Of a stretch of 56,858 nt of DNA, positions 27,272-36,167 are shown one piece after another (within the stretch, counting starts at the first letter, position 1; the number at the start of each line of letters is the position of its first letter). Location: IMG/VR virus record IMGVR_UViG_3300047548_000085, positions 1 to 56,858 of that record. One strand, written 5' to 3'. Source of the stretch: a virus (taxonomy: Duplodnaviria; Caudoviricetes). A program made the position numbers and the translations under genes. A model generated the notes under the pieces. It saw only the letters and a list, made by a program, of their open reading frames with translations. It had not been told where the DNA came from and made no database searches.

Positions 27272-27637
27272 TTAAACTCCTTTAGGATACTTTTGCTTAA
27301 CAGCTTCAACAGCAGCTAGGTAAGCAGTCATTTTAGTTTCATCACCTTGAGATTGCCAATAGATAGCATCAGCTAGATCAGCTAGAGGTGGATATTCGAA
27401 TTTACGAAGTCTCTGGTATTCTGAAGAAACAAACTCTGCTTCTAAACGAGCAATTTCGGCGTCTAGTTCTTCTTTAGACGGCATAGTTTGAACTTCGTCT
27501 AACCAAATAATACTTTTGGATTCAAACTCGCCAGTAGGTTCGCCATTTGCGTTTACAATTTCTTGCCAACCTGCGTCTTCGCCATTAACTGCCCACTGAG
27601 CATTTGGTCTTAAATTTTGTAGTGCTTGTCCAATCAT
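27272..27637 (-). CDS. tail-fibre assembly chaperone-like protein (paralog of 26482-26802)
   Basis: AL..LRPNAQW, PS.EELDAEIARL, YQRLR..EYP.L.D.AD, AVK.KYPK; start moved to ATG 27637 (ATGA overlap). Confidence 0.75.
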   Translation of the reverse strand: MIGQALQNLRPNAQWAVNGEDAGWQEIVNANGEPTGEFESKSIIWLDEVQTMPSKEELDAEIARLEAEFVSSEYQRLRKFEYPPLADLADAIYWQSQGDETKMTAYLAAVEAVKQKYPKGV

Positions 27638-28152
27638 GCTGCTAACTCCCAAACAGTTAATGTGCTTCTAGTTTGTGTGCCATAATAGTTACCATAAGAA
27701 CGATTCAAATATAGTACATAAGAAGCGTTCATCGAAGCGAATTGCGCTTGGAATGTTACAGGGTTTGTAGTTCCAGGTGTAACTATGTTACAGTCGTAAG
27801 AAGTATTCATCTCATAATCAGTGTTGACATTATCAGCGCCATACTGGAACTGCCATTGGGCACTACCATTACCAAGAATTGTTCCTAGAGCACCACCAGA
27901 CCAATACGCTCTACACCCAATATAACATCCGTTTGTGTTCCATGTTCTAGTACCCCAATATAACTGCATCTGAACAAAGAATCTACTGTTAACAGAAGAT
28001 GGAGTTAATGTTACTGCCAGAGGGGTAATATCAACATAACTCGTTGAGCTTGTTGAAAATGTGCTATCTGTTCTTGCAATAGCAACTTGTAATGGCGCTT
28101 GTACAACTGTACCATTAGTTTTTTGCCACTGATTCGCTTTAATAATACTCAT
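27634..28152 (-). CDS. fibre-tip beta-sandwich protein (paralog of 26799-27269)
   Basis: LQV......TSSTSYVDI..L.VTLTPSS.NS.F.V...PGTT..VT....LYLNR....S.LTVWELAA. Confidence 0.75.
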   Translation of the reverse strand: MSIIKANQWQKTNGTVVQAPLQVAIARTDSTFSTSSTSYVDITPLAVTLTPSSVNSRFFVQMQLYWGTRTWNTNGCYIGCRAYWSGGALGTILGNGSAQWQFQYGADNVNTDYEMNTSYDCNIVTPGTTNPVTFQAQFASMNASYVLYLNRSYGNYYGTQTRSTLTVWELAA

Positions 28153-28166
28153 TGTATTTTCCTATA

Positions 28167-28559
28167 TTAAACAATTGTCCAGACAGAGCCATCTGGAACG
28201 GTTACTGTAATACCATCAGAAATAGTTACTGGTCCAGCAGTCATAGCATTCTTACCAGAAGTGATAGTATAGTTCGCAGTAATATTTAGGTCGTTCTCGA
28301 AGAAGACATAGTTACCAACACCACCAGTAGCACCAGCGCCAATAGCACCCCAAGCAGTACCGTTGTGTCCTTCAAACTGATTCAGTTCGCTGTTATAACG
28401 AATCTTACCTGCAACACCAGTTGGTCGTTGAGCAGAAGTACCCTTTGGTAGCTGAATAGAACCAGTAGAAGACGGTATTGACACATATGTGAATTTATAT
28501 GGCATCTGCATTAGATTGCCATTAACATTTTGCCATGTATTAACTTTTAATTTATCCAT
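28167..28559 (-). CDS. short fibre connector protein
   Basis: N-terminal LKVNTWQ..NG, central P.GT.AQRP...GKIRYN...FEG, C-terminal NAMTAGP...WTIV. Confidence 0.75.
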   Translation of the reverse strand: MDKLKVNTWQNVNGNLMQMPYKFTYVSIPSSTGSIQLPKGTSAQRPTGVAGKIRYNSELNQFEGHNGTAWGAIGAGATGGVGNYVFFENDLNITANYTITSGKNAMTAGPVTISDGITVTVPDGSVWTIV

Positions 28560-28567
28560 AATTTACC

Positions 28568-29284
28568 TTATACAATAGTCCAAGTAGAGCCATCTTGTAC
28601 AGTAACAGTCACACCATTAGCAATAGTCACTGGACCAGCTGTCATAGCATTTTTATTTAATGGAATAGTATAATTGTTAAAAACTGTCACATCGTTTAAA
28701 AAGAAAATCTGATCAGTGCTACCACCAACCGCACCAGAAACAGTAACAACACCAGTGGCACCATTCACTGAAATAACGCCAGTGTTTGTGATCGTTGGAT
28801 TACCAGAAACACCATCACCATTTGAAACAGAGATACCTGTGCCAGCAGTAACGGATCTAGATGTTACCGTATTAACGCCATTTCTAACAACAAACCCAGT
28901 AGTGGCTAGGTTTGCTAAAGAAGTCAATTGGTTGCTAAATGCCTGAACGTCTGTACCGATAGCCAAACCAAGATTAGTTCTAGCAGTAGTAGCGGTTGAT
29001 GCGCCAGTACCACCATCTACAATAGCCAAATCTGTGATACCAGTAATAGACCCACCAGTGATGCTAACTGCAGTGGAGTTTTGAGTTGCAATAGATCCCA
29101 ACCCCAAGTTGGTTCTAGCAGTAGTAGCGTTAGTTAAGTCGCTTAGGTTGCTACTTTTCTCTAATTTACCATTATTGATACTAATAAAATTATTATCAAT
29201 TTCAGCGTTAGATAGAGGGGCATCTTTTCTGGTTACGCCATCGACCCCAGTGGTGCCAGTCTGTCTAGTTGTAATAGAAGCCAT
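28568..29284 (-). CDS. tail fibre protein
   Basis: K.APLS.AEID.NF N-terminus, ARTNLGL repeats, C-terminal NAMTAGP...WTIV module. Confidence 0.8.
   Translation of the reverse strand: MASITTRQTGTTGVDGVTRKDAPLSNAEIDNNFISINNGKLEKSSNLSDLTNATTARTNLGLGSIATQNSTAVSITGGSITGITDLAIVDGGTGASTATTARTNLGLAIGTDVQAFSNQLTSLANLATTGFVVRNGVNTVTSRSVTAGTGISVSNGDGVSGNPTITNTGVISVNGATGVVTVSGAVGGSTDQIFFLNDVTVFNNYTIPLNKNAMTAGPVTIANGVTVTVQDGSTWTIV
29066..29091. repeat. 26-bp exact repeat (AACTGCAGTGGAGTTTTGAGTTGCAA), second copy at 38529-38554, within a ~170-bp homology shared by two fibre genes
   Basis: Direct comparison; both regions encode ARTNLGLGS.ATQNSTAVSITGGSITGITDLAIVDGGTGASTA..ARTNLGL. Confidence 0.85.
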
Positions 29285-29313: not shown

Positions 29314-29327
29314 TATTTATTATTTAG
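29314..29327 (-). promoter_or_regulatory. tandem late promoters (CTAAATA, ATAAATA) right after the radical SAM cluster
   Basis: Minus strand CTAAATAATAAATAA upstream of the fibre gene at 29284. Confidence 0.65.
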
Positions 29328-29875
29328 GAGACTACTAACCCGTGTAGGGAGTCTAAAACTGTATCGTAGTCTTCATTCCAGGAGTATTGGAGGAAAACTC
29401 TAGTTTTATCATCCTTTTTGGTAACGCTATGAAGTTCGTTAATATTAAGCAGATATGCTTCTCCAGCCTTAGCCGACAATGAACACTCTATGTTTAAATC
29501 CTCAAAGTCGTATACATGGTAATCTTCTCTAACTATCCCGTCTTTTGGAGTGTAAAAAATGGTTTCGTCTTCAGATGTGTCAATGTAGTAGTTTAAAGAT
29601 ACCTTAGATTCGCCTCGATCACGATGAACGTCTAGCCACCCCTGTTTTTCAATCTGCCAAATTTGAATGGTGGTTGGAGGAATCTTAAAATTGTAATTTT
29701 GAATGTTGGCATAAAACCCTTCCATATCAGCGATTTCGAAAAATCTAAGCAAGGTATCACCCTTTAGTGGATCAGTATCTACACCAAATGTAAAGATGTT
29801 ATCTCCCCTGTAGTCTAAAATTTTACTAGGGTTTTTAACGAAACATGGTTTTATCTTACTGAAGTATTTGTTCAA
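29324..29875 (-). CDS. 2OG-Fe(II) dioxygenase / cupin-fold oxygenase
   Basis: HxD (VHRD) ... H (LHSV) ... R (TRVFLQ) facial-triad pattern; SLNYYI and AYLLN strands. Confidence 0.7.
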   Translation of the reverse strand: MNKYFSKIKPCFVKNPSKILDYRGDNIFTFGVDTDPLKGDTLLRFFEIADMEGFYANIQNYNFKIPPTTIQIWQIEKQGWLDVHRDRGESKVSLNYYIDTSEDETIFYTPKDGIVREDYHVYDFEDLNIECSLSAKAGEAYLLNINELHSVTKKDDKTRVFLQYSWNEDYDTVLDSLHGLVVS

Positions 29876-31157
29876 TTCCAGACTCCATCAACTCAACCTG
29901 TTCGCCGAATAGTAAAGATAACGAGTTTTGTTGAATAGCCGAATACCAAATCTTTTCGACTCTGCAATTGTGTAAGAAAACTTCGTTAGGGAAGTCGATA
30001 GGACAGCTAGACTTACACAATCTTTTAACGGGGCAGTGATAGCAGTGAGTGTTCTTTCTTTCAAGAGCCATTCCTACAATCTTAACACCCTTCAAATTAT
30101 TTATGTGACCACCTGTAAATTTTTCATTTGTATGTGGACATAATCTTACGCTACCACGGATGTCTAACGATAGAATATCCGCTGAATCTGCACCACATGA
30201 GGAAGTCATCGTTATAGGAATCTGATGACGAGTCAATGCAGCGTATTTAAGAATACCTGTGTCGTTATCTACAATGTTAGACTTTAGGAAACGATCTCCA
30301 CCTTCTTTCTTTTGGCGAATGCATGCTTTAAGATAAGCGTCTACATTTTCCTTAAACTTGGGTAGGAGGTCACCAGTGATAACGTGCTCAGCTGAGTTTT
30401 CCTCTCCACGTTCATCGTACACTCTCGCTGGAATGAATGACAACCTAGCGTCTTTCAATCCTAGACGATCTGCAACTTCTTTAAAGTAATCGTTGATTTC
30501 AAACAGATCGTAGTTAGTGGCTGAAACAACAGAGTTGAAACTAAACTGAACTTTTGGAGCGAGTTCGGCTAGTTGTTTGATAGATGACACTACGCTTTCT
30601 TTATTGAAGATGTCTTCGCCACGAAGTCGTTCATGTCCTGGACCATCGTGTGAAATACCCATCATCACAGATGCCTGTAAAGTCTTAAAGAAGTCTACAT
30701 GCTTTTGACGTAGTGGTGAGCCATTAGTTGAGATGTAGAAGTGACGACCTGGAGCATCAAGAAACTTCATAATTGGAACCATATCATTCCAGTAAAGGAA
30801 TGGCTCGCCACCCCACAACTCAATGCGTTCTAGTTGTTCTAAATCTAAGTGAGTTTTAACTGACTCAATGAATGACTCTAACCAGAAGTTCTCTGGTCGT
30901 TCGTTTGGGTTACCGATGTCTTTTTGCATACAGTAACCACATGAGTAGTTACAAGCATGACCCAGTAGGATGCGTAAAGCGACTGGTTTATTGTTCTTAT
31001 GAGTTACACCGAAAAGACCCTTGTCTTCGAAATACTCCCAACCTTCTTTTGGTGGAAGTGATAGCATCTCACCTTGCTCGCTGTGGATGCTATTATCAGT
31101 GTTGTCGTAGTAGAAAATACGACCAGAATCTTTTAGTTTAAATTTTGAAAAACTCAT
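29856..31157 (-). CDS. radical SAM / SPASM-domain protein
   Basis: CNYSCGYC, WGGEP, STNG, ISHDG; SPASM-like C..G.V.LC ... CxxCx5Cx3C ... C. Confidence 0.92.
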   Translation of the reverse strand: MSFSKFKLKDSGRIFYYDNTDNSIHSEQGEMLSLPPKEGWEYFEDKGLFGVTHKNNKPVALRILLGHACNYSCGYCMQKDIGNPNERPENFWLESFIESVKTHLDLEQLERIELWGGEPFLYWNDMVPIMKFLDAPGRHFYISTNGSPLRQKHVDFFKTLQASVMMGISHDGPGHERLRGEDIFNKESVVSSIKQLAELAPKVQFSFNSVVSATNYDLFEINDYFKEVADRLGLKDARLSFIPARVYDERGEENSAEHVITGDLLPKFKENVDAYLKACIRQKKEGGDRFLKSNIVDNDTGILKYAALTRHQIPITMTSSCGADSADILSLDIRGSVRLCPHTNEKFTGGHINNLKGVKIVGMALERKNTHCYHCPVKRLCKSSCPIDFPNEVFLHNCRVEKIWYSAIQQNSLSLLFGEQVELMESGIEQILQ

Positions 31158-32224
31158 AATTTCGTCACAAAACTTTTGATGGGTGTTCCGTCTAACTTAA
31201 CGAACCCATGTTTAGTTTTTGTCCATCCTCTTTGTTGTAATTTATCACAGTAGCGACTATAAGGAACCATCATCATTGAAGGTATAAAATTATAGTCATC
31301 GTTAAAGGTGTAGTTCAAAGTCTTTGTAAAGTATTCTTTAAACTTAGGATTGGTAGTCCTATCTTTCCACTTGTCATACAAAATTTGTTTACCACGAGCC
31401 AATGAAATTAAGAACTTTTCTGGCTCGAACTCTCTATTTAGAATGTAGTAGGGTTCGATGCTAGGATCGGATGCAACGTCATTGGAGAAGTAAAACCTAT
31501 CAAAGAATAGACAGATGGCTTCATCTCCATAGACCTGCATATTACCTTCGGTATCTACGTCAATCCATGTCACCTGCTGGTCAACCCAGTCTTCAGTTAG
31601 CAACTCTCGCTCACCAGCCAAGAAGTTGTAGTGAAACATCGTCTCAATGTTTTCTTTCTTAGCCCACTCATAATATTCACGCAAGGCATTGATGTTACCA
31701 CAGTCGATTAACTTCAACTGTAGGATAGGCGAAACCTCATGAATCTCTTGTAGCGATCTTTTTAACTTATCACCATTTACCTTTTCAACAAAGTAAGAAC
31801 TAAGGGAAATACTAGCGATCTCTTTGAAGTTGAGTTCCTTCGCCATACCTCTGTAACGGAAAATCTGATTGTCGGTCATTCCGTACTGAAAACGCTTTCC
31901 GTTACGCTTGAAGTAATCGTAGTGCTTTGGGTAGTTCAACTTTAAGAACATCATATCATCGTCTGTTCTTAGATACCCAAAGTAATCAAATACAGTTTCC
32001 CACTTTTCTTCAAGAGCATCATCAAAGTCGAAGTAATAATTACTAAGACCCTTCTTCATGTTCTTGAGGTTTTCTTGAATGTAGCAAACATGGCACCCAG
32101 CATCGCAAAAATAACGAGTGCTGATGCTAAAGTAAAGATCTCGCTTAACTGACTTGATACAATCCTGTAGGAGCCAGTGTTCGTCTAGATCCTTTGCTTC
32201 TTCAAAATGAGTCAAATAGTTCAT
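31154..32224 (-). CDS. divergent radical SAM-like protein
   Basis: CDAGCHVC (CxxxCxxC) near the N-terminus, but no GGEP motif and no SPASM Cys cluster. Confidence 0.65.
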   Translation of the reverse strand: MNYLTHFEEAKDLDEHWLLQDCIKSVKRDLYFSISTRYFCDAGCHVCYIQENLKNMKKGLSNYYFDFDDALEEKWETVFDYFGYLRTDDDMMFLKLNYPKHYDYFKRNGKRFQYGMTDNQIFRYRGMAKELNFKEIASISLSSYFVEKVNGDKLKRSLQEIHEVSPILQLKLIDCGNINALREYYEWAKKENIETMFHYNFLAGERELLTEDWVDQQVTWIDVDTEGNMQVYGDEAICLFFDRFYFSNDVASDPSIEPYYILNREFEPEKFLISLARGKQILYDKWKDRTTNPKFKEYFTKTLNYTFNDDYNFIPSMMMVPYSRYCDKLQQRGWTKTKHGFVKLDGTPIKSFVTKL

Positions 32225-33348
32225 TCGTTAATCTTAAAGTCTTCCTTAACACCAACCCATTCAAGCACAGACTTCTTCTCGTTTAGTTTGGCGTTATGCA
32301 TAATGGCATAATCCATGTAAGTATAGAACTCTTTACAACTACCGTTTGGTTGTTCATCAAATAATTTATAAAGATATTTCAACCCACAACTTGGTCGCTT
32401 CTCGCAAGACGAACAAGAATCGTGGATACGTCCAGCGTCACCTTGATTGCGCCAGAGTTGTTTATTCTTCCAGTCGCCAATACGAGCGTTTTCTGTTTTG
32501 TATTCTAGGAAGTCAAACTCTGGATAAATGTATCCGTCTGGGGAGAGAATGAGTTTGTTGTGTTCACCGAAGTATGCTTTATCAACGTCAGTGTAGCAAC
32601 CATCAATAAACACAGTCAGTTTCTTAACATAAAGAATCTGAATGAATTGAAGGAATGCATCTAAGAATTGTGGTAGGTGGATTCTATCAAGGATAACATC
32701 AAACTTATGTTTTCCTCGTTTGTGTCGTAGGGGAATAATGTTGATAACACGGCAACCAGACTTGTAGCAAGTCGCCACAATTTCTTTGATGTTATCAAAT
32801 GAGAATGACTTTGGGTCATCAATCGGAAGGACGAACTGCCACTGCCAAGAATCGCAAGTTCGGTTTAAAATCTGAGCCATCTCCATGACATCAAACTCAC
32901 TACGATTCTGCCCTTGATACATGAAGTCGTAGCTGACTGTGGCATAAAGGACATCTTTGTACTTGTCAAAGAACCACTCGCATTCCTTAACCAACGAACC
33001 ATTGGTAGTCATAGTGACTTTCCATCCGTTACGTTTAGCCATAGGGTAAAGCCATTCCATAACCTGTTCCATTCGTTTAATGAACAGAAGAGGTTCGCCA
33101 CCATGGAATGACACTCGTTCGATTACGTTTGGTTGAGTTTCAACCCACTCCAAAAACTCCTTCATTTCTAAAAGAGTCTTTGTGTTTAGGTTTTGTCCAC
33201 CAAGCGATTCAATGTAACCTCTATCACAGTAAACACAGTCGAAGTTGCAAGTGTTACCAAGATAAAGAACTACAAGTTTAATTTTGGATAGATCGTTATT
33301 GACTATGCGAACTGGATTCAACAAGTCTTTCACTGAATGTTCCTTCAT
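32221..33348 (-). CDS. radical SAM protein with partial SPASM/twitch domain
   Basis: CNFDCVYC, FHGGEPL, TTNG, VSYD; SPDG.IYPE (Cys replaced by Glu), CxxCx5C...C. Confidence 0.9.
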   Translation of the reverse strand: MKEHSVKDLLNPVRIVNNDLSKIKLVVLYLGNTCNFDCVYCDRGYIESLGGQNLNTKTLLEMKEFLEWVETQPNVIERVSFHGGEPLLFIKRMEQVMEWLYPMAKRNGWKVTMTTNGSLVKECEWFFDKYKDVLYATVSYDFMYQGQNRSEFDVMEMAQILNRTCDSWQWQFVLPIDDPKSFSFDNIKEIVATCYKSGCRVINIIPLRHKRGKHKFDVILDRIHLPQFLDAFLQFIQILYVKKLTVFIDGCYTDVDKAYFGEHNKLILSPDGYIYPEFDFLEYKTENARIGDWKNKQLWRNQGDAGRIHDSCSSCEKRPSCGLKYLYKLFDEQPNGSCKEFYTYMDYAIMHNAKLNEKKSVLEWVGVKEDFKINE

Positions 33349-35032
33349 AAGTCTTGTAAACAGACTGTAAAATAATCATGTGGAGCAATCCAAGATAGAA
33401 CGCTCGTTGGTGTGGGGTCTTTGCTTCAATCTTTTTATTGGTTGGAGCCAGACTTCCTTTTTGTAGAACAAAGTAATAGAAGTCATCAATCTCAGTTAAT
33501 TCGTCAGTTATTGCAAGTTTTATTTGACTAGTGAAGTTTTCTGGGGTAAGATATACAGTGTTCCCGTTGATGAGTGATTTCCAAAGAGTTAACATCTGTC
33601 TGTAATCAATATCTTCTAATCCAGTATGAACCATCTCTAGTTTTGGATGGTAGTTGAAATAGAAGTAAAACAACAGATAACTAATACCCTTCGCAAACGA
33701 TCTCTGTTCTCCCTCTGTATCCAATGCAGAACAGATTGTCTCAAACTTCTTTCTAAACTGCTTCTTAGAAATATCTTCGTGTAAATCCAAATACAATTTT
33801 ACAATCTTCTGACACATATCGTCTGGTCGGAACATTCTCGTTCCAGTATCAAGATTACCAGCTGGACATTGGTAACATGCATTCTTTAGATCACAAGTTC
33901 TGCACTGTTCTTCTTCTTGGAACATCTTAGCGTATTCTGTTTGGAATGCTTTGTAACGATCAATGTAGATTGCATTGTCGTAGATGTTACCAAGAATCGC
34001 TACCTCACCAGCACCAGCCTTTTGGTTAGTGAAGAAGTAGCAACCAGAGAAGTCACCAGAAGCGTCAATGGCAATCATGTCAGAACCAATCATGCAGTTC
34101 TCTTCGCCTTTTTGACCAACACCTTCTGAGAAGTGAATCTGAAGATCGTTATACTTATCTAGAACGAATAGGATATCTTTATGGAGTTTGTCCCATTCAT
34201 CATCGCTCCAACGAATAAATCCCTTGCTTGAATCAAGAACTAGCGGATGAACCACCATACGACGAATACCACGTTGGTATAGATTATCAACAAAGTTTGT
34301 GAAATATGGAGCATTCTCTCTTGCAAGAGTACAACGGATGGTCACACGCTTCTGTTGTTTGGCATCTTCATTGATGTACTGAATCATCTCCATAAGTTTG
34401 TCAATTTTATCTTGACCAATCTCACGATGATCAACTTCTGCTCTATCTGTATCTAATGAGATGAGCATGTAAGTGAAGTCGTATGTGAACCACTCATCAA
34501 CTAAAGACTCAGTTAGAAGAAGACCATTGGTTACCATACCGATGACAGTATTAGTATCTCCACGTGAGTGTAGTTGAATTTCCTCTTTGTTTTTATGAAC
34601 AAAGTCTAGGATAATGTCTTTGTGGATTAGTGGTTCGCCACCGAAGAAGTTAAAGATTTTCTTCTGGCGTTTATTGGAGTTCATCAGAAAACGATATGCC
34701 TTTAGAAGACTCTCGCTAGTGAAACGTCCAAAATCTTTATTATGCTGTTCGTAACAATAGGTGCAAGAAAGGTTGCACGCATTTGTCAGAATGAGGTTCA
34801 TCTGTTTCAATTCTTCGAAAAGATATGGAACAGATTCCATCGGAACGATGGTTTCTTCTGGTTTAGGTACGACTGAAACTAACTTGTTAGTTTTAGAAAG
34901 ACCTTTTGGAGTGATAATTTCTTCACTCTTAAAACGCAATGAACCATCCTCAGATAGTTCAACTGTTGCAGAGTGTTGCGCTTTACGTTCTGCTAATTGT
35001 TCTTTAGTTAACCAAATAACTGGTTGTGACAT
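33296..35032 (-). CDS. radical SAM / SPASM peptide maturase-like protein with C-terminal extension
   Basis: CNLSCTYC, FFGGEPL, VTNG, ISLD; CMIG...GDFSGC ... CRTCDLKNACYQC ... C; directly downstream of the Cys-rich peptide. Confidence 0.93.
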   Translation of the reverse strand: MSQPVIWLTKEQLAERKAQHSATVELSEDGSLRFKSEEIITPKGLSKTNKLVSVVPKPEETIVPMESVPYLFEELKQMNLILTNACNLSCTYCYEQHNKDFGRFTSESLLKAYRFLMNSNKRQKKIFNFFGGEPLIHKDIILDFVHKNKEEIQLHSRGDTNTVIGMVTNGLLLTESLVDEWFTYDFTYMLISLDTDRAEVDHREIGQDKIDKLMEMIQYINEDAKQQKRVTIRCTLARENAPYFTNFVDNLYQRGIRRMVVHPLVLDSSKGFIRWSDDEWDKLHKDILFVLDKYNDLQIHFSEGVGQKGEENCMIGSDMIAIDASGDFSGCYFFTNQKAGAGEVAILGNIYDNAIYIDRYKAFQTEYAKMFQEEEQCRTCDLKNACYQCPAGNLDTGTRMFRPDDMCQKIVKLYLDLHEDISKKQFRKKFETICSALDTEGEQRSFAKGISYLLFYFYFNYHPKLEMVHTGLEDIDYRQMLTLWKSLINGNTVYLTPENFTSQIKLAITDELTEIDDFYYFVLQKGSLAPTNKKIEAKTPHQRAFYLGLLHMIILQSVYKTYEGTFSERLVESSSHSQ

Positions 35033-35046
35033 AACGAATCCTCATT

Positions 35047-35250
35047 TTATAGTGTTCCACGCCCACAAGCGCAAGCGCATTGACATTCACAAACAGTTGT
35101 GTAGTCGTCGTAAAAGATATGATTATGTGATGCTAGTTGTTCTAAAACATCTAACATCTGGCGGTAAGTGTCCGCAGTAATATTGTCTCCGCTATTTTTA
35201 GCAGGAACATCTGAATTAACTGACGTAGTTGATGTGTTTTCTACACCCAT
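35047..35250 (-). CDS. Cys-rich RiPP-precursor-like peptide (67 aa; C-terminal CECQCACACGRGTL)
   Basis: AGGAGA SD; five alternating Cys confined to the C-terminus; immediately upstream of a SPASM radical SAM gene. Confidence 0.85.
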   Translation of the reverse strand: MGVENTSTTSVNSDVPAKNSGDNITADTYRQMLDVLEQLASHNHIFYDDYTTVCECQCACACGRGTL

Positions 35251-35258
35251 GATTTCTC

Positions 35259-36167
35259 CTATTCGATAACATCAACGATGTACTCTCGGAAGAATCGGTT
35301 TTTACTTGCAGTAAAAGCCATGTCCATAGTAGTACCAGTATTCCAACGGATGCTGATGTATCCTCGTTGTTTATTTAGGGTATTGACTATTACCTTATTT
35401 CCGTCCATGGTGTAGTCAAAGTTCGTGTCAACCTTAATCTTGGCGTCTTTGAAGAACTCTGGGAAGTGGTGATTCACAAACCAAGTCTTAAATGGCTCTA
35501 GTGTAAACTCAGTTCCACGAACCATAATGCTATTTTCGCCAATGATTCTAGCGTTTTTGCTAACACGAGGTTTAAAGATGATTTCGTTTAAATTCTTAAG
35601 ATGATTCGCCACTGTGTATACATGGTTCTGCCCATACTTGGCTTCAATGTTTTCAACACACTGAACTGAATGTGGGTTTAGAACGATGTAGTAAAGCGGA
35701 AGGTCTTTGGCTTTGTAACAGAACATCCAAGGAATCATTTTTGGATTTTCAATTTCTTCACCAGATACCAAATCAACAATGGTGTTACCTAACCTGTGAT
35801 ACCAAGAAGTTTTAGAAATAACATCTTTCTGTTCAATTCCACCTGTTGGTAAAATAGCACCCATCATTGCAATGTTATCTGAAGTCTTGTCCATAATTTC
35901 TGCGATTGTGTCAAAATTTAATGGGACTTCAGTTTCTGGGTCGTGTACACTGAATGGACGTTTTAAGATCAAATGATCTTCAGTGTAAACGGCTCCAGTG
36001 ATGGCGAACCTATTATCAACTTTTTGAAAGAATGAAATGTAGTTGGTGTAATCTTTGGCGTTGTTGCTATACCCAAGTCCTGGATTGATACCAACATTAG
36101 CCATGTTTAAAGAATCATCCCATGGATCTGGTTGACCCATAGCAGTTTGTAGTAAGAATACTCTCAT
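35259..36167 (-). CDS. hypothetical protein of the radical SAM cluster (302 aa)
   Basis: Long ORF, ATGA-coupled to the diiron gene; no motif recognised. Confidence 0.75.
   Translation of the reverse strand: MRVFLLQTAMGQPDPWDDSLNMANVGINPGLGYSNNAKDYTNYISFFQKVDNRFAITGAVYTEDHLILKRPFSVHDPETEVPLNFDTIAEIMDKTSDNIAMMGAILPTGGIEQKDVISKTSWYHRLGNTIVDLVSGEEIENPKMIPWMFCYKAKDLPLYYIVLNPHSVQCVENIEAKYGQNHVYTVANHLKNLNEIIFKPRVSKNARIIGENSIMVRGTEFTLEPFKTWFVNHHFPEFFKDAKIKVDTNFDYTMDGNKVIVNTLNKQRGYISIRWNTGTTMDMAFTASKNRFFREYIVDVIE

Follow-up and report, generated by a model that had tools for sequence, protein, structure and literature searches.

What is a 67-residue protein that ends in a strict ladder of alternating cysteines doing among the tail-fibre genes of a phage, directly ahead of a set of radical S-adenosylmethionine (SAM) genes? 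The question is raised by pep67, a minus-strand gene in IMG/VR virus record IMGVR_UViG_3300047548_000085 (Duplodnaviria; Caudoviricetes), whose 56,858 nucleotides, a fragment judged 36% complete by CheckV, are referred to here as the window. The answer favoured here, at a probability of roughly 0.55, is that the pep67 product is a mini-protein belonging to the fibre apparatus, matured by radical SAM enzymes and most likely held by thioether staples, rather than a free antibiotic peptide. Peptides matured by radical SAM enzymes are known among bacterial natural products and in a few enzyme subunits, and a literature search found no description of the peptide family, of the cassette gene set, or of radical-SAM modification of phage fibre proteins. 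Three observations are new: homology between the N-terminal half of the peptide and the modules of an upstream His-x-His protein, a module count that sums to three, and fibre homologues that themselves end in an Asn-Cys ladder.

The peptide gene and its cysteine ladder

The window encodes baseplate hub and wedge, fibre, terminase, sheath, portal and major head proteins; the cassette is carried by a large myovirus and lies inside its tail-fibre gene module. All cassette genes are on the minus strand, and in order of transcription the region reads fib418, p129, HxH128, diFe262, p302, pep67, rSAM578, rSAM375, p356, rSAM433, p183 and three fibre-like genes. The peptide gene and its two conserved parts are placed as follows.

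35047..35250, minus strand: pep67, a 67-residue protein, stop codon within the coordinates (basis: open reading frame (ORF) and translation, Shine-Dalgarno sequence, homologues)
35101..35187, minus strand: helix and H-x-H-x-x-Y-D-D-Y module, about residues 22-50 (basis: hhalign)
35065..35091, minus strand: Cys ladder C54-E-C56-Q-C58-A-C60-A-C62, in strict alternation (basis: translation, homologue alignment)

From its N-terminus the protein consists of a variable stretch rich in Ser, Thr and Asn, the helix with its His-x-His module, the ladder, and an RG-x-L end; the translated ORF closes with ...SHNHIFYDDYTTVCECQCACACGRGTL. Cysteine occurs only at residues 54, 56, 58, 60 and 62, the last being followed by GRGTL and the stop codon, which bears out an earlier reading of this DNA, made from the letters alone (the sequence-only reading), that all five cysteines of the peptide stand in a strict CxCxCxCxC array. 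The same reading set the array at 35047-35105 after an acidic DDY hinge; that range reaches from the stop codon through residues 67-50 into the codon of D49, and the placement after DDY is roughly right, except that T-T-V intervenes.

By its Shine-Dalgarno sequence (AGGAGA, 7 nucleotides ahead of the ATG) and tight gene spacing (8 nucleotides from the upstream stop to its start, 14 from its stop to the next ATG), pep67 looks like a real gene. The Cys array is a family hallmark, and chance is disfavoured as its source: the window's six frames contain a single five-Cys alternating run, as against a mean of 0.017 and a maximum of 1 in 60 first-order Markov simulations. A scan for promoters and terminators returned 26 promoter-like sites where 32.9 were expected, and found no terminator between pep67 and rSAM578. 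On the opposite strand, a 139-residue ORF (34761..35180, plus strand) runs antisense to pep67 and to the start of rSAM578, two conserved genes, and is almost certainly spurious.

Conservation of the peptide family

A word-index search returned 156 homologous proteins at E<=0.01, and all five cysteines are kept in 119 of the 120 listed among them, the remaining one having F at the fourth Cys. Across these 120 the last 26 residues are nearly fixed (H-x-H-[IVT]-F-Y-D-D-Y-x-T-V-C-E-C-Q-C-x-C-x-C-x-R-G-T-[LVIF]), and the N-terminal 25 are variable. More distant members came from a profile search of 1.84 billion representatives, which yielded 71 proteins at E<=0.001, 36 of them at E<=1e-10. Alternating cysteines are present in 61 of the 71, numbering three in 14 proteins, four in 15, five in 20 and six in 12, and x-R-G-x-hydrophobic closes most of these arrays. 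The sequence-only reading had named lack of conservation in homologues as grounds for refutation, and this refutation fails, the array being conserved. Among the 213 spacers, N is the commonest (107), followed by Q (54), D and A (14 each), E (9) and others (15). Several of the ten arrayless representatives resemble short N-terminal pieces; P0183 and P0190 are His-x-His proteins that have no Cys tail, and the tails of P0154 and P0170 are irregular.

In an alignment of 44 sequences (A1), invariance holds at all 13 even-numbered positions, 42 through 66 (H H F D Y T C C C C C R T), and at only 5 of the 13 odd-numbered ones, 43 through 67. Held over 25 residues, this two-residue period agrees with a single long strand, one face of which is under strong constraint. 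Such a strand would also be expected were the ladder an unmodified metal- or Fe-S-binding strip, that is, a metallothionein-like C-x-C run beside the H-x-H that serves as a structural element of the fibre or as an electron carrier, with the enzymes acting elsewhere, on the HxH protein or the fibres. Even positions that stay in phase throughout are what a metal-facing strand calls for, spacers that are mostly polar (N, Q, D, E) suit a solvent-facing side, and metal sites of the H-x-H kind are known from trimeric phage fibres. Against this idea, none of 47 peptide-family members matched any Pfam family at E<=1, metallothionein, ferredoxin and Cys-rich metal-binding families included; SPASM enzymes of this branch act on peptide cysteines, to go by their family names; and Cys-tailed proteins occur together with SPASM enzymes in several forms at one locus (below), which is best explained as enzyme and substrate. 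We therefore regard an unmodified strip as quite unlikely.

Several further sequences touch on the limits of the family. In P0166 (256 residues) the ladder is internal and is followed by a proline-rich linker and a domain of about 170 residues, so that this protein may be either a fusion or an error of gene calling. When further members were sought with a degenerate DNA pattern, family members made up 2 of the 28 stretches matched in genomes and 6 of the 9 matched in viruses, and the remaining matches were set aside as unrelated Cys/Asn-rich frames. The pattern also found Cys/Asn/Gly-rich proteins of 97-98 residues (…N-N-G-C-N-C-N-C-N-C-P-S-G…), which lack the His-x-His module, in Lacrimispora, Clostridium and Paenibacillaceae genomes (L020, L025, L027, L031, L032, L037, L038 and L040); these are a different family, unrelated to the phage peptides.

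His-x-His modules shared with the upstream protein

The second conserved part of pep67 has its counterpart in a gene that precedes it in the cassette.

36972..37358, minus strand: HxH128, 128 residues, with two helix and H-x-H-x(1-4)-D modules and no Cys ladder (alignment A3)

HxH128 has 321 homologues and is present in all 15 IMG/VR loci collected with the peptide as query. Comparison of the peptide family (A4) with the HxH128 family by hhalign gave a probability of 95% and E 3.3e-8 over 43 columns, pairing the helix and H-x-H of the peptide with the second HxH128 module; on this profile evidence the N-terminal half of pep67 is homologous to the HxH128 modules. An AlphaFold2 (AF2) model of HxH128, with a mean local confidence (pLDDT) of 85.7 and a global score (pTM) of 0.74, consists of three helices and a hairpin, the first H-x-H lying within a strand. 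Among solved structures no fold relative of HxH128 was found (none by Foldseek at E<=0.001; best VIA Z 4.9).

Modules were counted with the regular expression H-x-H-x(1-4)-D in 17 loci picked to represent lineages, a set that omits the near-duplicates L007, L008, L010, L012, L014 and L015 and the short loci L050 and L053. A one-module peptide is preceded directly by a two-module gene in 16 of 16 loci. At the Ewingella locus the arrangement is turned round, the peptide having two modules and the upstream ORF of 85 residues one, and L061 and L062 are two further 2+1 cases. In every locus examined, then, the module counts of the peptide gene and its upstream neighbour sum to three, and single-chain proteins with three modules also exist, one with the ladder (P0158) and one lacking it (P0183). 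From these two observations we infer that three modules would form one unit, of which the peptide contributes the third. P0158 has no relatives of near its length (1 of 253 candidates, itself). The pattern also matched RP12 ORF072 and ORF073, a 418-residue ORF in L051, and one enzyme each in L013 and L058, all taken as chance or unrelated. A complex prediction for three copies of pep67 scored 0.02, with partner pLDDT below 50, and no reading was drawn from it.

At another locus (L048 6620-7978) the two-module His-x-His protein is 452 residues long; its C-terminal part starts C-F-P-A-G-S-F-V-L-M-A-D-G... and presumably resembles a self-cleaving domain of the Hint/intein type.

Radical SAM enzymes of the cassette

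Four genes follow pep67 in the direction of transcription.

33296..35032, minus strand: rSAM578, radical SAM/SPASM (Pfam Radical_SAM 3.7e-17, SPASM 1.5e-4, both above cut-off)
32221..33348, minus strand: rSAM375, radical SAM (Pfam Radical_SAM 1.6e-12)
31154..32224, minus strand: p356, cryptic radical-SAM-like protein (phrog_36229)
29856..31157, minus strand: rSAM433, radical SAM/SPASM (Pfam Radical_SAM 1.8e-11)

The features that define the SPASM superfamily, a conserved CX3CX2C and a seven-Cys SPASM motif, are present in both rSAM578 and rSAM433: CX3CX2C and seven further cysteines are conserved in 16 of 16 sequences of the former, and three plus seven in 12 of 12 of the latter. In rSAM375, CX3CX2C is accompanied by four C-terminal cysteines, including one motif like that of an auxiliary cluster (15/15). 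No Pfam family matches p356; its CX3CX2C[YF] is invariant in two alignments (12/12 and 14/14), on which basis it is read as a cryptic fourth radical-SAM-type protein. That several radical SAM enzymes would be linked to the peptide, as the sequence-only reading suspected, is thus confirmed by Pfam matches, synteny and conserved cysteines across loci.

The NCBIfam families nearest rSAM578 are, in order, PapB (2.1e-35; 122.5 bits against a cut-off of 340), SCIFF (4.4e-24; 85.2 against 425), CXXX-repeat (9.4e-23; 81.2 against 350) and QhpD (1.2e-21; 77 against 453), and the best match among solved structures is 5wgg (1.9e-16). All of these best relatives are thioether formers, which weighs against the proposal that the ladder undergoes non-bridging chemistry, each Cys being converted to formylglycine or dehydroalanine, or to a methylated or epimerised residue, with diiron or DUF3050 oxidases adding oxygen-dependent steps. 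What speaks for such chemistry is, first, that the number of cysteines varies from three to six with no matching set of conserved distant acceptors, D48 being the only residue invariant across the family, a pattern suggestive of unit-by-unit reaction; second, that rSAM433 and the anaerobic sulfatase maturase model match over almost the full length (E 1.3e-10); and third, that genes for oxidases are found with the cassette. Set against a cut-off of 349 bits, however, the sulfatase-maturase match reaches 41, and the oxidases are inconstant, the diiron gene being present in 3 of 15 loci and the window itself having no DUF3050 gene. Non-bridging chemistry consequently appears distinctly improbable.

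The cassette in other phages and genomes

The cassette is conserved together in several phage lineages. In the 15 IMG/VR loci, p302, like HxH128, is found without exception; rSAM578 stands directly after the peptide in 14, the other locus (L008) ending too early, and all four enzymes are present in 9, the others being cut by contig ends. The set also occurs in a contig of a Bdellovibrio metagenome-assembled genome, on a 253-kb scaffold of an Ewingella americana isolate, and in L046, L048 and L061. Neighbours of the Ewingella cassette include tail-fibre and baseplate-wedge genes; since no terminase was found in the Ewingella or Bdellovibrio assemblies with the query used, neither contig is claimed as a phage. 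Elsewhere on the Ewingella scaffold, about 125 kb from the cassette, there is another radical SAM/SPASM-like gene, with 27% identity to rSAM578 (L057; G001:C38 92732-93694).

Among cultured phages, a tblastn search with the window peptide matched meaningfully only the Ralstonia jumbo phages RP12 and RP31 (3 records, E 4e-6). Another 59 records were dismissed as weak terminase matches (E about 0.1), and no cultured phage was matched by megablast of the cassette DNA or by tblastn of the distant members P0127 and P0184. In RP12 an ORF of 65 residues, unannotated in the GenBank and RefSeq records of both phages, lies between ORF074 and ORF075 (L001 9001-9198, equal to NC_041911.1 82888-83085) and ends in a four-Cys ladder followed by T-R-G-S-L. 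Its neighbours reproduce the cassette: ORF074 is a two-module His-x-His protein, ORF075 a structural twin of p302 (TM 0.73), ORF076, ORF077, ORF078 and ORF079 match rSAM578, rSAM375, p356 and rSAM433 in turn, and ORF080 is a DUF3050 protein. In the available text of the paper on RP12 and RP31 the cassette enzymes appear only under 'other genes' (PMC5468394).

Cysteine ladders on fibre proteins of related phages

The gene that opens the region offers a second way into related phages.

37734..38990, minus strand: fib418, tail-fibre protein upstream of the cassette (PHROG tail-fibre families)

IMG/VR holds 354 relatives of fib418. Eighty loci with a homologue were fetched, and the 22 that extend at least 7 kb downstream form the count. 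Radical-SAM-like genes stand beside the fibre gene in all 22, in five types of locus.

Type A, 8 loci: same cassette as the window, in 6 as ORFs and in L085 and L088 by tblastn only
Type D, 7 loci (L071 7096-12301; also L078, L090, L091, L098, L108, L128): protein of 171-191 residues with a tail of the C-H-x-x-C-H-x-S-C-H-G-S type; two radical-SAM-like genes
Type B, 4 loci (L125 8573-9781; L132 10001-11146; L141 8539-9720; L143 9983-11122): fibre homologue of 379-402 residues with an Asn-Cys ladder at its extreme C-terminus, then one adjoining SPASM-type gene each, for an enzyme of 457-472 residues
Type B', 2 loci: 126-residue protein ending in an 11-Cys ladder; one SPASM-type gene adjoining
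Type C, 1 locus (L142 11178-20012): six consecutive ORFs with the CX3CX2C pattern beside the fibre gene, one of them a 252-residue ORF with four C-T-C-N-C units

Type B fibres are 45-51% identical to fib418 over their N-terminal 250 residues or so, and their Asn-Cys ladders tie alternating-Cys ladders directly to fibre proteins. In five of five type B and B' enzymes compared (the four B loci and one of the two B'), the best match in the window is rSAM433, at 115-131 bits, which points to rSAM433 as the ladder enzyme. Type D loci contain, besides a SPASM-like enzyme of 359 residues and the protein with its C-H-S-N-C-H-G-S-C-H-G-S tail, three unknown genes as well as another radical-SAM-like one. 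The 252-residue ORF of the type C locus may be a substrate and not an enzyme.

These loci bear on the proposal that pep67 is the precursor of a classical ribosomally made and post-translationally modified peptide (RiPP), in which the variable N-terminus and helix would be the leader and the radical SAM enzymes would make a sactipeptide- or ranthipeptide-like product, released at lysis, that acts on competing bacteria, on the host or as a signal. The gene is small, has a precursor-like layout and directly precedes a PapB/CteB-like SPASM enzyme; the RP12 record does not count ORF074 and ORF075 among virion proteins; and lysis could stand in for an exporter. Yet searches with Pfam, NCBIfam and PHROG showed neither a protease nor an exporter nor an immunity gene in the cassette, and none of the ten cassette proteins gave a protease match or a PqqD/RiPP recognition element match at E<=0.01, although a divergent element could escape. 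The near-invariance of the 26 C-terminal residues over 120 clusters beside a variable N-terminus is the reverse of what most RiPPs display, the supposed leader copies a module of a folded neighbouring protein, in all lineages seen the cassette keeps a fixed place among fibre and late structural genes, and in 4 of the 22 related loci the ladder is fused to fibre proteins. A classical RiPP is accordingly considered unlikely. The sequence-only reading had likewise treated the region after the hinge as a free RiPP core, and here it does not fare well, the evidence favouring a small protein tied to the tail-fibre apparatus: the N-terminal half is a His-x-His module held in common with the upstream protein, the whole C-terminal half is nearly invariant and not the cysteines alone, and related phages bear the ladder on the C-terminus of a fibre protein. 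Overall, that interpretation is partly supported.

Neighbouring genes

The remaining genes of the region are the following.

37360..37749, minus strand: p129, small conserved protein between fib418 and HxH128; homologues in 13 of 15 IMG/VR loci; no match in Pfam, NCBIfam or PHROG
36164..36952, minus strand: diFe262, ferritin-like, putative diiron protein of the rubrerythrin type (Pfam Rubrerythrin 1.2e-6); accessory, in 3 of 15 IMG/VR loci
35259..36167, minus strand: p302, conserved beta-rich protein of 302 residues with a C-terminal immunoglobulin (Ig)-like sandwich
29324..29875, minus strand: p183, at the site where relatives have a DUF3050 protein; no Pfam or PHROG match, no homologue in the related IMG/VR loci
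27634..29284, minus strand: three fibre-like genes (238, 130 and 172 residues) downstream of the cassette; PHROG tail-fibre and structural matches

For p302 no match was found in Pfam, NCBIfam or PHROG, nor any enzyme signature. Its AF2 model (pLDDT 78.9) has as its best PDB match a Z of 6.2 over residues about 191-302, and as its best BFVD match an RP12 protein of 295 residues (TM 0.73); no convincing fold relative emerged except Ig-like sandwiches, and a protein-atlas look-up gave no usable lead. The accessory genes vary: most relatives, and RP12, have DUF3050 after the last enzyme (as in L005 and L011), where the window has p183, and in three loci the diiron and DUF3050 genes occur together.

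A proposed stapled mini-protein of the fibre apparatus

On the reading favoured here, pep67 would be the dedicated substrate of the four-enzyme radical-SAM cassette. The peptide would dock onto the two-module HxH128 as a third module, and the docked modules, with up to six His and three Asp, could hold a metal. SPASM enzymes would then link the Cys thiols, as thioethers, to carbon atoms of residues close by, the likeliest acceptors being the Asn, Gln, Glu, Asp and Ala spacers; PapB, QhpD and NxxcB use acidic or amide residues in this role. An enzyme of the rSAM433 type would act on the ladder itself, and the others may act on the H-x-H and F-Y-D-D-Y stretch or add links. The stapled mini-protein would then remain, unexported, with the fibre apparatus as a tip, an adaptor or an assembly factor, a virion context supported by the baseplate, fibre, sheath, portal and capsid genes that surround the cassette.

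Several points weigh against this reading. The presumed chemistry is deduced from enzyme similarity, and the similarity is distant, all NCBIfam scores falling far under the family cut-offs; the three-module complex, in turn, is deduced from module counts. Ala, ill-suited to acceptors of the PapB type, is frequent at the third and fourth spacers (117 of 478 spacers in close homologues). Within the peptide family the bearers of the ladder are nearly all small; the 71 representatives reach 256 residues at most. Finally, the RP12 RefSeq record calls ORF074 and ORF075 'hypothetical', and ORF072 and ORF073 'virion structural protein'.

A bolder extension is possible, and is offered tentatively: large phages may build part of their host-binding apparatus with the chemistry of peptide antibiotics, the 2+1 modules assembling into a pseudo-threefold metal unit from which a stapled or metal-loaded Cys rod projects, and the locus swapping at least four Cys-tail/enzyme cassettes. 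If so, adsorption or fibre stability would depend on a modified tail that diversifies. Should the favoured reading hold, large phages of freshwater, wastewater and soil would be using radical-SAM maturation routinely in building their virions; a C-x ladder joined to a His-x-His docking module would be a new substrate class; RP12 and RP31 would be cultured relatives for experiments; and protein engineers would gain short tags that are genetically encoded and stapled by enzymes. It would also explain the clusters of radical SAM genes among the structural genes of giant phages. As far as the available text of each report goes, an Aeromonas giant phage has eight radical SAM genes inside its structural cluster, called highly unusual and left unexplained (PMC12390700); Campylobacter phages have 11-12, noted as unusual and likewise unexplained (PMC2853527); and Burkholderia phage S13 encodes the radical SAM proteins gp71, gp76 and gp79 together with 2-oxoglutarate (2OG) oxygenases (PMC11898562). 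A bacterial defence system with a radical-SAM-matured His-x-Ser effector is described in the accessible part of a further report (PMC13128918).

Comparison with known systems

The C-x spacing of the ladder differs from that of SCIFF, as the sequence-only reading had noted, and from those of PapB and CXXX-repeat substrates as well, and the cassette enzymes score far under the cut-offs of all three families. CteB, which acts on the SCIFF peptide CteA (PDB 5WGG/5WHY; TIGR03974), is nonetheless the only solved structure that strongly matches rSAM578 (residues 76-387 against 97-413), and the two systems have in common a radical SAM and SPASM architecture and a small Cys-rich substrate. They differ in score, as given above, in Cys pattern, and in setting, SCIFF being a clostridial system of the housekeeping type. 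The N-terminal domain of CteB binds the peptide; at that place rSAM578 has about 75 residues.

PapB (PapA, freyrasin; NF047865) is the top named family for rSAM578, matched over positions 2-321 of 330. A SPASM enzyme, it has a repeated Cys motif for its substrate, in which it links the sulfur of Cys to carbon atoms of acidic residues, and precursors of its family are defined by motifs of the C-x3-D/E type. In the window the maturase score is below the family cut-off and the peptide has only C-x-C spacing, not C-x3-D; moreover, four enzymes take the place of one, the genes are phage-borne within a fibre locus, and the substrate includes a His-x-His module.

The CXXX-repeat system (maturase TIGR04115; target PF27846) similarly combines a repeat-type Cys substrate with a SPASM maturase. 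Here the repeat is C-x and not C-xxx, the maturase score is again below cut-off, and no peptide-family member matches Pfam; the tail of the C-H-S-N-C-H-G-S-C type belongs to an alternative cassette at the same fibre locus. In the protein atlas, the Pfam-named clusters nearest HxH128 are largely viral, with PF27846 in about a quarter of their members, a lead only, given weak scores (0.79).

NxxcB reportedly forms a thioether from Cys to the Asn beta-carbon, and Asn is the commonest spacer of the pep67 family (107/213). NxxcB and its substrate NxxcA, set beside pep67 by description only, are named as a streptococcal radical-SAM RiPP in the available text of one report (PMC11851443), the motif being N-x-x-C in a short quorum-regulated peptide, unlike the ladder.

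Trimeric phage fibres offer a comparison of another kind. There is no structural match between the His-x-His proteins and solved fibres, and three copies here are split over two small proteins (2+1); the T4 proteins gp37 and gp12, however, have His-x-His metal sites in trimeric fibres, and the H-x-H of these fibre-module proteins would, at three copies per unit, likewise give six His.

QhpD and its substrate QhpC (quinohemoprotein amine dehydrogenase; TIGR03906) differ from the present system in that no quinone cofactor context is seen here and the ladder is repetitive and of variable length, the score of this family, fourth best for rSAM578, also standing well under its cut-off. It is nevertheless in QhpD that a SPASM enzyme staples a small Cys-bearing protein that is not exported and stays on as the subunit of a complex.

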